Shown here: positions 7,014 through 36,824 of the stretch, in pieces | How the letters are laid out: the number at the start of each line of letters is the position of its first letter | Numbering within the stretch: position 1 is the first letter of the stretch | Virus record (IMG/VR): IMGVR_UViG_3300020325_000030 | Span: 1-39,586 of that record | Length of the DNA stretch: 39,586 nucleotides | Reading direction: 5' to 3' (one strand) | From: a virus | Lineage: Duplodnaviria > Caudoviricetes | The notes under the pieces: generated by a model | Databases searched by the model: none | What the model saw: only the letters and a program-made list of their open reading frames with translations | Told to the model about the DNA's origin: nothing | Made by a program: the position numbers and the translations under genes

Positions 7014-7241
7014 TTAGAAGTTTCCCCCGTTGATGTCTAAATTCTGAGCTGCACCTGGTGTAAGTTCCAACGTTGCTTCCCACTTTTGGATGGCACTGTT
7101 ATAAACCAGAACCATTCCATTCTGCAAATTACTTGCACTAACATCACTAAGTTCAGCCAAAGAAAGTCCTTGGGCACCAGCAAGCGAAGATATTACTTTT
7201 ACTGCAGGTTGTTGACCTACCCTGACTTTAATATCAGCCAT
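7014..7241 (-). CDS. Small virion-associated protein
   Basis: 75 aa; LSDV..NGMVLVYN...KWEA fibre-type motif, C-terminal INGGNF; directly downstream of a late promoter. Confidence 0.75.
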   Translation of the reverse strand: MADIKVRVGQQPAVKVISSLAGAQGLSLAELSDVSASNLQNGMVLVYNSAIQKWEATLELTPGAAQNLDINGGNF

Positions 7242-25600: not shown

Positions 25601-28600
25601 AATCATCAACAAAGAATCCATTAGCAAAGTCTGGTCTATCTTCAACTGAAGTCGGAACTACATCATAACTTGATTTAATAATTCTTACACCAGACTGAAT
25701 GTTTTGTGGGTCATCGTATGCAAAGGGACCATAGATTGGATTTCCATCATATGCCCATCCAATAATTGGTGAGTGATTACCATCAAGTGGTTCAAGATTT
25801 TCTGCCAAATCTTCAGAATATCCAAAGATTCCATACACCAAAGAATCTTCCTTTTCATTTTTGTAGAGATTTGAGAATATCTTATCAGACTGATTCTTAG
25901 CAAATCCTGCAAATCGTTCTGCATCATTAATATCAAGATATCTAACTCTAGAATCGAACTTTGCTCCTGACCCCCTAGACTTAATATAAATGGATGTTGC
26001 TTCGGTACTATATCCGATACCTTCATTAATTACAATAACATCTGTAATTTTTCCATTTTGCAATACTGGTCTAAGAATAGCACCAGTGCCCGCAGGACTA
26101 GATCCATCCTCAATAATTAATTCTGGAATTGAGATGTAACCACTTCCACCATTCAATACTTGAACTTCAACAATTCTTCCATTAGTAACAATTGGTGCAA
26201 ATTGTGCATTAATACCTTCAGTAATACTAATGGTTGGTTTTTTATGTAAATTTATGGTTGTAGAACCATAACCAACACCAGGTTCATAGAGATATGCATC
26301 AACAATGCTTCCCGTAATTAAAGGAGTAATAGTGAATGTTCCAGTTGTACCACCAAATGAGACATTGGTTTTTACTTCAATTGGAGGATATTGGAATACG
26401 TGGAATCCACTACCAGAATCTATGAAGTCAACATGCTTATTTCGTACACTATCTGTAGTGTCGGTTCCACCAATACCAACATTAATTACTCTAAATGTAT
26501 CAGAGTCTAACTTTTCAATCTGATATTGATCTGTTGTATTAAGACCAGCAATCTCATTTTCAGTACTGGAATATAAAACAGTCTCACCTGTCTCAAATCC
26601 ATGATTTTTATAAGAAACTGTATTATAAACTGTCGAAATACCAGAGGTCTTTACTCTCAGTTTTCTATGCGTATATCCAGATCCAGGAGTTAATACTTTA
26701 ATCTCCCTAAGATTGTTTCTAGGAAGAGTTCTAAACTTATGAATACCACTAGCAGATGTTGCAGTAGAAAGACCAATAGTATTGATACCTACACCTTCAA
26801 AAAGGGCATCTGCTTCATTAATATGAAGTTTGATCGTTTTACTATTAACAACTTTAACGACGTATTGATCACCACTGACTAAAGTTCCAGTAATTGAATT
26901 ATTAACATCATATGCGTTTCCAATAGAAATTGGTTTATTGTTATTATGATTATAAATTACAGTCTGACCATTACTAAAACTGTGATTTTCGAAGAATGTA
27001 ATAGTTTCCTCTTCGATATCAACACCACCACCAAGAGTGCGAGCACGACTATCAAACGATACTTCTCTAAATCTTCTACCAACAACAGGTTCTAAAGTAC
27101 AACCACTACCATTTCCTCCAGTTAAAGTAACTGATAAAACATTATCAACGTCAAAATTTTGTGGATCAACAAGAACTTCTTTTACACTACCTGTAATAAT
27201 TGGTTCTACTAGGGCAGTAACCAAACCTACAGTTCTTGCCATTCCAACGCTAATAGCAATTTGTGGTGGATTAATTACATCATAGTCCTTACCACCATTC
27301 AATACTTCAAATCTTTCCAGAGGACCAAAGTAAACCCTATCCCTAGATTCTGGACTACTGATTTCTACACCGTCAATAAGAACACCAACATTTCCAATAT
27401 TTCTTGTAACTTCACCTTGTTGTGCAAGTGTCTGTTTTAATGGGAATTTTCTAAGAATATTATTTGAAGATAATTGCTTATCTTCGTGTCTATCGAGAGT
27501 AAAGGTATGTGTTCCACCTAATGCATTAGGAATAAATCTCACTGGTTGATCACCAGTAGGATACTTTGAAGTATTTTCTACCTTTAATGATGACTTAGAA
27601 GAATATAATTGAATCTCATTAGATTTTATTACCTTAACATAATAATATTCTCCAGATACTAATCCAGAAAGTTGATTATCTGCAAGATACTTTACTCTAT
27701 CACCAGTTACAAATCTTACTGTTGATGGAAACTTGATTGATTTCCAGGTCTTAAGTCCAGAATCATAATTACCCAGATTAGATTCAAGACCATCTGGTAT
27801 GGAAGATTCGACTATTTCATCAGAAATATTGTACCCAGGTAAAGAATGTGATGCAACATAACCAAACTCTTCCTTATCATCTGTATAAACGTTTAGTACG
27901 TTTGCAACATAAACATCATTTCCTTCTTTGATTGGAGTTGCTAAACTTTGACCCTTGATTAGATTTCTTCTAATACTGTAGGTTTGAGTCGATACTGGAG
28001 TAAATCCAGGAATATTTCCAAGACTTACTTCTTTACCACTGATAGAATTGACTGTTGCACCAGAACCATTTGGTGCTACTACATTACTACTTCCAATCAG
28101 AATATCTACAGTATCACCAACCCTAAGAGTTGCTTTATCAATATCTTCAAATAAGAAGAATGATCCTCCTTGAATATCTTGAACATCAAATCTTGACTTA
28201 GTATTGTATATCCAAGAATTTGCAAATACTTCTTTATATGTTCTATCTTCTACTGGATTTCTAATTATTTCACCAATATTTCTTACAGCAATTTCTTCAC
28301 CGACTTCCATCAAAGGAATGTCTTCAAGTGCTTCAAAATCAGACAGAACTCCTGTAATACGAAGTTCACATTTCTTTTCTATATCACCATTTTCATATCC
28401 AAAGATAGTTTCATCTGCTCTAATTGGATCGGTTACATTAATTGCATCAGTAATTCCAGTACAACCAAAGAACTGGTTAATACTCTTTGAAGTATATTCA
28501 ATTTTATTGCTACCACTAACAATAGAACCAGTCTGACCAAAACCTATTGTAGAGTCTACAGTGATTACAGAAGCACCAGGTGAGACAGATTCTAAGACTC

Positions 28601-33277: not shown

Positions 33278-33445
33278 CTATAGTTCGGTTACTACGATAG
33301 CATCTCCATCTACTTCCATATTAACTTCAGTACCTTCATACCACCCGAATTCACTGATGATCCACTCAGGTACCTTGATAACATATTCCCCTGTTACTGG
33401 ATCAACCTCTACGGTCGAAAAATTTTCTCCGGGATTTTTTTGCAT
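33278..33445 (-). CDS. AbrB/MazE/SpoVT-like swapped-hairpin protein
   Basis: GEYVIKVPEWIISEFGWYEGTEVNMEVDGDAIVV matches the AbrB/MazE pattern (xIP..i...lg...Gd.v.....dg.ivi). Likely start is MQKN at 33445; the ORF track extends to 33490. Confidence 0.75.
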   Translation of the reverse strand: MQKNPGENFSTVEVDPVTGEYVIKVPEWIISEFGWYEGTEVNMEVDGDAIVVTEL

Positions 33446-33629
33446 ATGAGGTATTCCGTTTCGCACTTTTGTTTTATATAGAAGAGTCATGTGTTATACA
33501 AAGACCTCGCAAAAGCAAGACTTTATAGCTTACAGGGACCCATGGATTTTATATACGGGGGGGCACACGGGCACCGCCCGCCACGCGGCGGGGACGGGGG
33601 CACTGCCCTATCACGAACCCACTGCAGGG

Positions 33630-33839
33630 TCAACCGAACACCAGGTCGGCAATCATCTGTCCGATGAGGTCACAGCGCCAGGTCTCCAACTCACCCAGGT
33701 CGATGCGCTCACCACACAGATGGGCATAATCCTGAGCGAACTGCGGCACGAAGTTCAGGTCCTGGTCAGCATCCCAAACGAATTGGACTGCCTCACTCCA
33801 GGAGATGGTGCCGTTAGCGTCAGGGGTTGGAAAGGTCAT
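33630..33839 (-). CDS. Small early hypothetical protein (69 aa)
   Basis: Likely start MTFPTPDANG at 33839, downstream of extended -10 TGgTATGAT (33862-33870) and an A/C-rich leader. The longer ORF-track start lies inside the upstream gene. Confidence 0.7.
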   Translation of the reverse strand: MTFPTPDANGTISWSEAVQFVWDADQDLNFVPQFAQDYAHLCGERIDLGELETWRCDLIGQMIADLVFG

Positions 33840-33879
33840 CGGGTTGTTTGTTGTTGCACGAATCATACCACGGAACGGG

Positions 33880-34632
33880 TCAAAACTCCAGGACCTCCAC
33901 ACCGTCAGCAGTCGCCACCAACCGGTCCACACGGTCCTGCTGCAACTTCAGAACGATTTGAGAATTCCTGTTCGCTTTGCTCAACCCCAGAAATGCCTTC
34001 ACACCGTTGTTGCTGGTGACGCGAATCCGGAGACCACAATCCACGATGTCGTCGCCTTTCACCAGCACAACCTTCCGGGAGGTCATCCCACGACCAGCAA
34101 CCAACACGGCAGAATAACCGTCACGGAGCAGGCGGGAGACTTGCAGAGCGTCATGGTCACACACGAAGCAACGGCGGGCGCTGGTGTCGGTGACCGCCAT
34201 GATCATGCCGTGATTAGCAGTTACGACCTGCTCACGAACCCAAGCGGTCAGCGTGTCGGACGTGATAAAGTCCAGGGCGTCAGAGCAAACCTCATTCAGC
34301 AGGTCGCGGGTCTCCTCTACCATGGCGGTGCGCTGCTCTTTATCCCAACCACGGGCGGCGGAGATAAAAGCACGGAAGTCGTCAAAGCGGGCGGAGTCCA
34401 GCAGGTCGTCGGTTTTGCTGGTGTTCACCCAGTCAAAGGAACCGTTCTTCAGTCCTGCTTTGTGCTTGATGCTGATGGGGGTAGCACCCGCCATGGCGTC
34501 CGCTTTGTGCTTGGTACCGCCCAGGTGGGTGACGGTTTCGGTGAACAGGTTGGAAGCGTTAAGCAGAGCAATGGTGTCGTGCTCGTTAGCAACGCCTTCG
34601 TGATGAACTGAACCGTTGGTTTGGAATCCCAT
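33880..34632 (-). CDS. PD-(D/E)XK nuclease, type II restriction endonuclease-like (MspI/HinP1I-like pattern)
   Basis: EGVANE...HLGGTKHKADA..G.TPISIK fits the E...K(A/T)D...(S/Q)xK catalytic arrangement. Start placed at MGFQ (34632) because a promoter lies within the extra 24 codons of the ORF-track call (34704). Confidence 0.65.
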   Translation of the reverse strand: MGFQTNGSVHHEGVANEHDTIALLNASNLFTETVTHLGGTKHKADAMAGATPISIKHKAGLKNGSFDWVNTSKTDDLLDSARFDDFRAFISAARGWDKEQRTAMVEETRDLLNEVCSDALDFITSDTLTAWVREQVVTANHGMIMAVTDTSARRCFVCDHDALQVSRLLRDGYSAVLVAGRGMTSRKVVLVKGDDIVDCGLRIRVTSNNGVKAFLGLSKANRNSQIVLKLQQDRVDRLVATADGVEVLEF

Positions 34633-34671
34633 GTTTGAAGCGGGTGAGCGCCACCCGTCTGAACTGAAAGT

Positions 34672-34700
34672 AATATAAGCGAAAGCAGGGGTCAGGTCAA
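34672..34700 (-). promoter_or_regulatory. sigma70-like early promoter
   Basis: TTGACC-N17-TATATT; CGGGTG/CACCCG hairpin in the leader (34641-34657). Confidence 0.75.
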
Positions 34701-34707
34701 GCATTCC

Positions 34708-34727
34708 GGACGGTTCCCCTACTGTCC
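34708..34727. promoter_or_regulatory. 20-bp palindromic upstream element
   Basis: GGACGGT-N6-ACTGTCC, 7 bp upstream of the -35 box; related copies at 35375, 35591, 35853, 36102 and 36261. Confidence 0.6.
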
Positions 34728-34804
34728 ACCCTTCCCCCCTTTGGTTTTTTAAGGCGTGCTAGGATGAAGGCAGAGCCTACGGGCAGCCGCCCTGAGTATC
34801 AAAT

Positions 34805-34825
34805 AAGGGGGATTATTTCCCCCTT
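34805..34825 (-). terminator. Hairpin / probable terminator after the ArdA-like gene
   Basis: AAGGGGG-N7-CCCCCTT stem just downstream of the stop, with A/T-rich flanks but only a short U tract. Confidence 0.6.
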
Positions 34826-34833
34826 AAATGTTA

Positions 34834-35310
34834 TCACCAGTTGCTGGCGAAAATGTAACCGTCCTGCTCATCGTAGTCGTAGCAGAGTTGCTGCCAGGTT
34901 GCTTCCCAATCAACACAAACGAAGGCAGGAATGTCCAGGCAATAGCAATCAGTGGTCAACTGTTCTGCAAACTCTGCACCAGACATTTCGCCTTGGTAAG
35001 CATCAGTGAAGGACTCCAGATTCTCCTCTCCGTAGAGTTCAATGAATGCCTTAATTGCGTCGGCATCATAATCCTCAAGGAGTTCAGTCAGGATGTCATT
35101 TTGCTCGGGATAATCACCCAGCATTTCTTCCTTCTCAACTGCGGCGGTAGTGATACCACGCGCCTCCAGAATTGCTTCGTAAAATGCAGTGAAAGCAGGT
35201 TTGCCATTCTCCCGAACATAACCGCAGGTCAGACACTGCGTGGTACGGTCGGCGGATTCCATCTTGCGGATCATGTCCAGGAGAGCGGAACCGGTGAGAG
35301 CGTTGGTCAT
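34834..35310 (-). CDS. ardA: Fusion of a cyanobacterial AbrB-like N-terminal helical domain and an ArdA-like antirestriction domain
   Basis: N-terminus LTGSALLDMIRKM....CGYVRENGK..FTAFYEAILEARG resembles the cyAbrB N-region (LTG..LL.kvk.....CGY....G....F..Al.eA.G). The acidic C-terminus DAYQGEM..AEFAEQL...DIPAFVCVDWEATWQQL.YDY...DGYIF resembles ArdA. Confidence 0.7.
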   Translation of the reverse strand: MTNALTGSALLDMIRKMESADRTTQCLTCGYVRENGKPAFTAFYEAILEARGITTAAVEKEEMLGDYPEQNDILTELLEDYDADAIKAFIELYGEENLESFTDAYQGEMSGAEFAEQLTTDCYCLDIPAFVCVDWEATWQQLCYDYDEQDGYIFASNW

Positions 35311-35335
35311 GTGTTGCTTTGTTTGGTATGTGTGA

Positions 35336-35365
35336 ATTATAAGGGGTGGGAGGGGTCAGTGGCGA
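35336..35365 (-). promoter_or_regulatory. sigma70-like early promoter
   Basis: TCGCCA-N18-TATAAT upstream of the ArdA-like gene. Confidence 0.6.
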
Positions 35366-35547
35366 TCACTGATGTTCCAGATTCCCCACTGTCCACCGTC
35401 GGCGGGTTGGGACTCATTCCACTTGCTGAACCACTCGCGGCGCAGTTCACGCTCACGCTTCTCCTGCTCCATCACCTGAAGCGCAATGGCGGAGAGTTTA
35501 GGATTGCTGGCGTAGATGCCGTTGGAATCGAATTGGATTTTGTTCAT
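35356..35547 (-). CDS. Small early hypothetical protein (63 aa), probably leaderless
   Basis: In the ORF track; ATG is 6 nt downstream of the -10 box. Confidence 0.75.
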   Translation of the reverse strand: MNKIQFDSNGIYASNPKLSAIALQVMEQEKRERELRREWFSKWNESQPADGGQWGIWNISDRH

Positions 35548-35553
35548 GTCCGG

Positions 35554-35582
35554 AAGATAGGATGGATTCAGACGAAAGTCAA
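35554..35582 (-). promoter_or_regulatory. sigma70-like early promoter
   Basis: TTGACT-N17-TATCTT. Confidence 0.75.
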
Positions 35583-35590
35583 TAGGTTGG

Positions 35591-35610
35591 GGACGGTTCC
35601 CCGACCGTCA
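35591..35610. promoter_or_regulatory. 20-bp palindromic upstream element
   Basis: GGACGGT-TCCCCG-ACCGTCA, near-identical to 34708-34727, 8 bp upstream of the -35 box. Confidence 0.6.
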
Positions 35611-35772
35611 CATGCCGTTGAGGAAATCCGCCATTGCTTCCTGATACTCCTCATAAGTCGCGAAGCGATCAGCGAACCGAGCGGGAACCTTGCGGTCGCT
35701 CTTGGTTGCGGTAGGGAGGTCACGACCCTTAGCGAGGATCTGTTGAGCGTAGGGGTTTTGTGTTTTGTTCAT
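35608..35772 (-). CDS. Small early hypothetical protein (54 aa)
   Basis: Likely start MNKTQNPY at 35772, 6 nt after TGcAATAGT; the ORF track extends to 35796. Confidence 0.7.
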   Translation of the reverse strand: MNKTQNPYAQQILAKGRDLPTATKSDRKVPARFADRFATYEEYQEAMADFLNGM

Positions 35773-35905
35773 GCTCTTACTATTGCACAGATCCACGGAT
35801 TTGGTAGTTCACGGTGATACAGAACTGCGGAAGAAAACCTTAAGGTTGCTTGTGCCACTCCACCGACTGGAGCGAAGCGGCTGCCTGAGTTTGTGTTATT
35901 TACTC

Positions 35906-36495: not shown

Positions 36496-36655
36496 GCGCA
36501 TCATAATCTTGCGCGTCACGTGCATATTCCTCGTCGAGATCTTCATCTAGTTGTGATGCGTTCGCGAACGATTGCACCCATGCATCATATGTCTCGTCGA
36601 GATCATGTGCATAATCATGCGTGTATGTATAGTCGAGATCGTAATCGTCGTACAT
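36473..36655 (-). CDS. Asp/Tyr-rich small protein (60 aa)
   Basis: In the ORF track; GAGGA RBS and own promoter; its DLD(E) words are encoded by the DNA repeat. Confidence 0.65.
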   Translation of the reverse strand: MYDDYDLDYTYTHDYAHDLDETYDAWVQSFANASQLDEDLDEEYARDAQDYDALAYKHYA

Positions 36656-36678
36656 AATCCTCGTCGAGATTCTTGTGT

Positions 36679-36707
36679 ATTGTAGCAGATATATCGTCGA
36701 GATGCAA
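36679..36707 (-). promoter_or_regulatory. sigma70-like promoter containing a repeat copy
   Basis: TTGCAT-N17-(TGc)TACAAT; ATCTCGACGA overlaps the -35 box and spacer. Confidence 0.75.
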
Positions 36708-36764
36708 GTCTAGTCGAGATTGTATTCTCGTCTAGCTATAAGTCTCGTCGAGATTCATAACGTT

Positions 36765-36772
36765 TATTTATA
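36765..36772 (-). promoter_or_regulatory. T4-type late promoter TATAAATA within the repeat array
   Basis: Exact consensus flanked by two repeat copies. Confidence 0.55.
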
Positions 36773-36824
36773 AAACTCGTCGAGAAAATGTGTGGGTTCT
36801 CTGATTTTTCGCCGTCCCCGGGGG

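Follow-up and report, generated by a model that had tools for sequence, protein, structure and literature searches.

ArdA inhibits type I restriction, its acidic ridges mimicking the DNA backbone. In the antirestriction protein ArdA, domains 2 and 3 bind the methyltransferase core, domain 3 carries a VF/IF motif, and domain 1 is dispensable (PMC2731889); a C-type sArdA of 114 residues is active (PMC12548430). The net charge quoted for ArdA proteins is −22 to −29, monomeric ArdA retains antirestriction activity, and terminally extended ArdA proteins have been described (PMC3906837). ArdA-like proteins also have targets beyond restriction, namely, the repressor AllR (PMC13300388) and, for the ArdA-like gp119, EndoV (PMC13091555), and ArdA has been reported to act on H-NS silencing (PMC10746416). 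A further paper, by its title, assigns the anti-H-NS effect to the N-terminal domain of ArdA, the slot that is filled by a cyAbrB domain in the protein described here. Truncated N-terminal domains of silencers act as dominant negatives and are used by mobile elements as antagonists (PMC7074111). In cyanobacteria, cyAbrB proteins are regulators that organize the genome. cyAbrB2 coats long AT-rich tracts and has been proposed to be H-NS-like; its oligomerization is presented in that report as expected rather than demonstrated biochemically (PMC11368403), so that an oligomerizing role of the N-terminal domain can itself be put only conditionally. cyAbrB1 and cyAbrB2 interact (PMC13421787) and control hydrogenase, carbon, nitrogen, and chlorophyll genes, and cyAbrB1 is essential in Synechocystis (PMC13421787, PMC13249358).

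Here, we describe a phage gene that joins the N-terminal domain of cyAbrB (N-domain) to the C-terminal half of ArdA. The fusion is real, selected, and recurrent; the cyAbrB partner appears to be new, while extended ArdA proteins and C-terminal ArdA halves were already known. Literature searches on cyAbrB or AbrB and phage, on cyanophage antirestriction, and on counter-silencing returned nothing on the fusion, on phage cyAbrB fragments, or on an ArdA with a cyAbrB-domain partner, although supplementary tables of cyanophage genome papers may mention the fusion.

The gene and its surroundings

The window, i.e., the whole 39.6-kb stretch of DNA analyzed, is a virus record that is about 18% complete. 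Large genes of structural type (2,477 and 4,288 residues among them), some of which we take to be baseplate-like, are followed by a same-strand run of small genes; the GC content is 54% at positions 33600 to 35800 versus 35% in the presumed large baseplate gene of 4,288 residues. Close relatives of the fusion gene match T4-like cyanophage records and contexts, which on sequence grounds marks the window as a fragment of a marine T4-like cyanomyophage. The fusion gene (Table 1) lies among small genes of the early-region kind, and this setting suggests that it is likely expressed early in infection. The promoter match upstream of it scored 10/12 and is weak alone, since the region held six such sites versus 3.3 expected; many myovirus orthologues are preceded by a similar −10 box, as read by eye. 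In metatranscriptome contigs of relatives, which cannot show transcription, the gene was partly covered in three of four runs.

Table 1. Coordinates of the fusion locus in the window and of stand-alone N-domain genes in other records
Feature	Position	Strand	Basis or remark
Fusion gene P0001, cyAbrB N-domain plus ArdA C-terminal half	34834..35310	−	158 aa; PHROG, model, profile-profile
Residues 1-53, cyAbrB N-terminal domain	35152..35310	−	Profiles, model
Residues 54-75, variable acidic helical linker	35086..35151	−	Helices at 55-66 and 68-80 in the model
Residues 76-158, end of ArdA domain 2 and all of domain 3	34837..35085	−	PHROG, 2w82
Sigma-70-like promoter match, TATAAT at 35341-35336	35336..35365	−	26 nt 5' of start codon
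Terminator-like hairpin, inverted repeat I8	34808..34823	−	11 nt past stop codon; consensus match only
Stand-alone 52-aa N-domain gene, annotated hypothetical	L276:4004-4162 = P-TIM68 KM359505.1 55868-56026		
Stand-alone 52-aa N-domain gene	L278:6001-6159		Stop at same place as P-TIM68 copy

The gene at 33278-33490 (−), kept downstream of the fusion in relatives, encodes a small acidic protein with a weak match to MazE/AbrB swapped hairpins (PF04014, E = 0.0085; phrog_661) and no match to the cyAbrB hairpin profile; it could be a second decoy beside the fusion protein (see below) or an unrelated regulator. A 250-residue gene at 33880-34632 (−), found in only some relatives (L007 and L016), has no Pfam, PHROG, or NCBIfam family; by eye, it displays what we take to be a PD-(D/E)XK nuclease-like order of motifs and is putative in this respect. 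At 36518-36785, about ten short repeats of the type TCGTCGAGA, irregularly spaced, run into a tiny acidic gene.

The two halves of the fusion protein

Residues ~1 to 52 had been assigned in the original prediction to the N-terminal region of cyAbrB, and this assignment was borne out for residues 1 to 53. A profile built from 16 fusion N-domains alone, with zero AbrB rows, matched a 62-row cyAbrB alignment over 53 columns with a profile-profile probability of 99.7% (E = 2.6e-25) and found all 80 of 80 picocyanobacterial cyAbrB loci; the reverse cyAbrB profile recovers the fusions. Direct sequence matches of residues 1 to 53 are weak, being to plasmid AbrB genes with E values of 0.4 and 5 (38% over 53 residues), and the phage domain is about 40% identical to that of the host. 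In a search of 1.84 billion representatives, 578 proteins matched the N-domain profile at E ≤ 0.001, and the best 150 of these carried an AbrB hairpin (35), an ArdA C-terminal half (21), or neither (94, many of them fragments). Residues G7, L10, G30, and A50 are invariant in 34/34 fusions and 27/27 cyAbrBs, Y31 in all but one; the CGY motif is kept at residues 29 to 31, and the core residues are invariant in both myovirus and podovirus forms. The cysteine of this motif might, as a guess, correspond to the redox-modified C34 of cyAbrB2.

The N-domain model features helices at residues 7 to 16 and 22 to 28, a short hairpin, and a helix at residues 40 to 50. The same helices and hairpin form a separate, confident domain in the host cyAbrB model, where they precede a disordered linker and then an AbrB/SpoVT-type hairpin. 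With six D/E and six K/R in residues 1 to 53, the phage domain is charge neutral, as is that of the host. Models of both gave weak matches to generic helix-turn-helix bundles (Z 3 to 4). It had also been proposed that the swapped-hairpin DNA-binding domain of cyAbrB is replaced in this protein, and this held: PF14250 was not matched, and of the 105 close homologues none was matched by the hairpin profile, which had no match in the window either. The fusion protein alone has no Pfam match to either ArdA or PF14250, a family whose model covers no more of the N-domain than its last helix. Sequence searches of the PDB returned no solved relative of the fusion or of cyAbrB, and the ESM Atlas contained no usable match for the N-domain or for the tail of the DUF7222 type (see below). 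A zinc finger (NCBIfam, E = 0.006 to 0.05, far below the cut-off) was rejected because relatives often have A instead of C at position 29 and V instead of C at position 26. The short hairpin loop (7 to 8 residues versus 12 in the closer host paralogue) was likewise dismissed as a phage signature, since a second conserved host paralogue has a short loop, too; the lysine pair in the hairpin of the closer paralogue is absent from the phage domain. A tree of the N-domain (54 columns) resolves too poorly to name a donor or count origins.

The proposed acidic ArdA-like region was recovered at residues 76 to 158 by PHROG and by structural comparison. PHROG 36653 (anti-restriction protein) matches residues 79 to 157 with an E value of 2.2e-14, and the top VIA match of the fusion model (pLDDT 88.7) is ArdA 2w82, with model residues 76 to 158 placed on residues 75 to 165 of the chain (Z 6.5; rmsd 2.9 over 82 residues; next match Z 4.3). 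A Z value below 8 can reflect a common arrangement; PHROG, BFVD, and Pfam in relatives agree with ArdA. Specifically, the best BFVD matches of the model are antirestriction proteins, and PF07275 matches 10/38 family members at E ≤ 0.01; Foldseek against the PDB returned nothing at E ≤ 0.001. Residues 54 to 158 contain 27 D/E and 2 K/R (residues 76 to 158, 21 and 1), and the whole protein contains 33 D/E and 8 K/R, i.e., a net charge of −25, within the range quoted for ArdA. The IF motif corresponds to I153-F154, with F154 invariant in 38/38 rows, and D134 and W135 are conserved. The position of the interface tyrosine of the Y-I-D motif, mapped from Tn916 by motif, is occupied by C, E, V, or A, and the unfused ArdA forms of P-TIM68 and S-TIM5 lack this tyrosine as well.

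ArdA matches start at residues 74 to 79 of the fusion, and the α/β domain 1 is missing, with the cyAbrB domain in residues 1 to 53. By the limits given in PMC2731889, sequence and model place the ArdA part as the end of domain 2 plus all of domain 3, and the cyAbrB domain occupies the slot of domain 1; the linker probably replaces the start of domain 2. Since domain 1 of ArdA is dispensable, the fusion is to be regarded as sArdC-like rather than as a canonical ArdA, and its ArdA half is predicted to act as a DNA mimic.

Distribution and selection

The ArdA half is present in 98 of the 105 close homologues, and the other seven look truncated or misassembled. Among 50,697 phage records, seven carry the fusion and four more carry other forms of the N-domain; most cultured phages are without it. 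T7-like Synechococcus phages with the fusion are S-CBP1, S-B28, WH11-B, 7B11-B, and DSL-LC07, and in the two T7-like phages inspected the gene lies upstream of RNA polymerase in the small-gene region, where T7 keeps Ocr. ArdA-only forms occur in P-TIM68, S-TIM5, and L103 to L106; in S-TIM5, the ArdA half is present and the N-domain absent. The best 80 of 419 viral N-domain loci comprise 28 fusions and 52 loci without ArdA, read as whole cyAbrB, and a further search listed 77 open reading frames of the latter kind, which makes whole cyAbrB genes a frequent find in contigs of viruses. Fusion of neighboring genes was not supported, an ArdA-like open reading frame being found within flanks of ≤3 kb at 0 of these 52 loci. 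In phage contigs of about 40 kb, whole cyAbrB genes (L201:4998-5315, L202:5001-5315, L252:5001-5327, and similar ones) sit, by eye, between terminase- and portal-like genes, and their carriers are possibly temperate cyanophages with a silencer of their own. A complete 44-kb phage (G010:C1) encodes the fusion together with a longer cyAbrB-like match elsewhere (7054-7206 and 28148-28495).

In metagenomic proteins, the N-domain also precedes a complete three-domain ArdA (P0144 and P0219), DUF7222, and two further acidic domains; viral loci for the fusions to full ArdA, DUF7222, or the acidic "SVPV" domain were not recovered in the searches. One family (P0141, P0143, P0153, P0162, P0169, P0170, P0175, P0198, and P0201) joins the N-domain to an acidic domain of about 85 residues that has no Pfam or PHROG match. 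Of 17 other partner tails, picked by eye, 16 carry 0.09 to 0.24 net acid per residue, while 2/19 and 4/18 background early open reading frames reach 0.15; the tails are not counted as evidence, since they were picked by eye and one, from phage B23, is basic. In this Synechococcus phage (gp246, L277:3977-4405) and in B3, the N-domain is joined to a basic tail.

Both halves of the fusion are, to judge from the aligned genes, under purifying selection. In 16 myovirus orthologues (120 nonindependent pairs), the N-domain has a dN/dS of 0.17 and the ArdA half one of 0.12, and the linker (residues 54 to 75) is the least constrained part (0.42). These values bear on the view that the N-domain is left over from recombination with a cyAbrB gene carried by a phage and persists only because it makes a well-expressed leader. 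Donors would have been plentiful, given the whole cyAbrB genes in viral contigs, but the N-domain (mean identity, 81%) is constrained like the ArdA half, its core is invariant across myovirus and podovirus forms, and its predicted fold is confident, which largely refutes this view and leaves it very improbable. In an ArdA tree of 35 rows, from which five truncated or frameshifted rows had been excluded, fused and unfused halves interleave, and the test rejects a tree that unites all 29 fused rows in a single clade (p-AU 2.8e-6); the N-domain has therefore been gained or lost repeatedly, in a direction that the tree does not show.

The comparison of fused with separate genes raised by the original prediction yielded a split state: P-TIM68 and L278 each have a 52-residue N-domain gene and an ArdA-only gene in the same region. 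In the Prochlorococcus phage P-TIM68, the bare gene has its own stop and lies 3.3 kb downstream of the ArdA-only gene, and its product was also the BFVD match of rank 12; in L278, the distance is 5.5 kb. The two copies are 83% identical with an excess of silent changes (pN 0.11 versus pS 0.41), and because the genomes are related, they count as one case. Phages thus keep the N-domain without cargo and without a DNA-binding part. The existence of such genes implies that the domain does something on its own, and the split state favors an independent role for it.

Candidate targets and known systems

On the host side, the N-domain occurs in 36/36 sampled genomes of the genus Synechococcus, with two to seven matches each, whereas type I HsdS (PF01420) was found in 6/36 Synechococcus and 13/81 Prochlorococcus genomes, of which drafts can miss islands. 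Besides cyAbrB, hosts join the N-domain to repeat and HNH proteins and, by eye, to long proteins with membrane-like or BRCT-like parts (L282:1-2190, −; L283:936-2132, +). The conserved short-loop paralogue of cyAbrB lies behind cytochrome oxidase-like genes at L279:1521-1928 (+).

We tentatively favor, at somewhat less than an even chance, that the N-domain docks on and poisons host cyAbrB, much as truncated antagonists do with H-NS, and that the acidic half serves as a mimic of DNA. This decoy reading is preferred because the N-domain is universal in the sampled hosts and type I HsdS rare, and because of the literature on silencer antagonists and on ArdA and H-NS; the bare domain, having no cargo to dimerize, also counts for it, as do the purifying selection on both halves, the repeated gain or loss of the N-domain, its occurrence ahead of complete ArdA, and its separate, confident fold in the host model. 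The N-domain would be the second oligomerization surface of cyAbrB, through which the phage copy would enter host cyAbrB oligomers as a dominant negative, by analogy to H-NST with H-NS. Once tethered, the ArdA half would compete for the hairpin by which the bound cyAbrB contacts DNA; in hosts with type I restriction enzymes, a minority, it would still inhibit these. The expected gain would be that AT-rich phage DNA escapes silencing or that the carbon, nitrogen, and photosynthesis genes under cyAbrB control are reprogrammed. Against the decoy reading we count that phage and host domains share only about 40% identity, that the bare form occurs in two related genomes only and the N-domain is patchy among phages, and that the gene region, at 54% GC, is not AT-rich.

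Alternatively, the protein could be a plain sArdC-like inhibitor of type I restriction, with an N-domain that does no more than dimerize it or, in place of ArdA domain 1, extend the mimic; cyAbrB would then not be a target. Such a protein would need neither domain 1, given that domains 2 and 3 bind the methyltransferase core (PMC2731889), nor great length, the 114-residue sArdA being active (PMC12548430), and its charge would be that of ArdA (PMC3906837). The location ahead of RNA polymerase in T7-like phages and the replaced interface tyrosine, as mapped by motif, are further points in its favor. However, the tyrosine is missing from the unfused P-TIM68 and S-TIM5 forms too, a dimer tag is not needed since monomeric ArdA is still active (PMC3906837), bare N-domain genes exist, and type I systems were found in only about one-sixth of the sampled hosts. 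We regard this explanation as rather unlikely, albeit not negligible.

The helix-turn-helix-like fold of the N-domain (Z 3 to 4) and its attachment to unrelated host proteins count against the decoy reading as well, the former since the domain could bind DNA or another protein, the latter since it suits a generic tag. Both fit a third explanation, in which the N-domain binds another host partner (RNA polymerase, a regulator, or DNA) and delivers the mimic to it, damping transcription or a DNA-binding enzyme; ArdA-like proteins with other targets are known in gp119 with EndoV (PMC13091555) and in the case of AllR (PMC13300388). Yet such Z values are at the level of a common arrangement, and the neutral charge of the domain and the lack of the hairpin lysine pair in the phage copy argue against DNA binding. 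We consider this explanation unlikely.

Returning to the preferred reading of the fusion as a decoy for cyAbrB, its broadest form would be that at least two unrelated marine cyanophage families repeatedly took the N-domain, by itself or fused to ArdA or other acidic domains, as a homing tag to disable cyAbrB, the counterpart of H-NS, which appears possible though doubtful. If so, cyAbrB would be an unrecognized antiphage silencer and the fusion a mimic guided by a fragment of the protein that it attacks. A decoy of this kind, jamming cyAbrB and perhaps restriction enzymes, would be the first phage countermeasure against cyAbrB. ArdA-like genes persist in these phages, most of whose hosts seem to be without type I restriction, and the decoy would account for this as well; early host-takeover genes annotated as hypothetical or simply as antirestriction would thereby gain a function. 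The cultured phages P-TIM68, S-CBP1, S-B28, and WH11-B make the role of the N-domain and the silencing of foreign DNA by cyAbrB testable, and the phage protein might lend itself to inhibiting cyAbrB, of which the paralogue cyAbrB1 is essential in Synechocystis.

Among known systems, T4 Arn and T7 Ocr are, like the fusion, early acidic phage mimics, for which relief of H-NS repression is reported. The fold of T4 Arn differs from that of the fusion. T7 Ocr is also of a different fold (PMC3906837). Neither mimic is known to carry a host-derived docking domain. ArdA (Tn916 Orf18, 2w82; PF07275) and sArdC share with the fusion the fold from late domain 2 through domain 3, the IF motif, strong acidity, and likely early expression, whereas the fusion has an unrelated, neutral host-regulator domain in place of domain 1 and, as mapped by motif, seems not to keep the interface tyrosine. 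With cyAbrB1 and cyAbrB2 (PF14250), it shares homologous N-terminal 53 residues with the same predicted helices and hairpin but, unlike these, is phage encoded, carries an acidic tail, and is devoid of the swapped-hairpin DNA-binding domain. The logic of H-NST and truncated CgpS, in which a mobile element retains from a nucleoid protein the part that does not bind DNA (PMC7074111), is fitted best by the 52-residue gene of P-TIM68, a likeness of logic for which no homology is claimed; the H-NS domain is a proven oligomerization domain, that of cyAbrB a putative one, and H-NST carries no counterpart of the DNA mimic predicted in the phage fusion.
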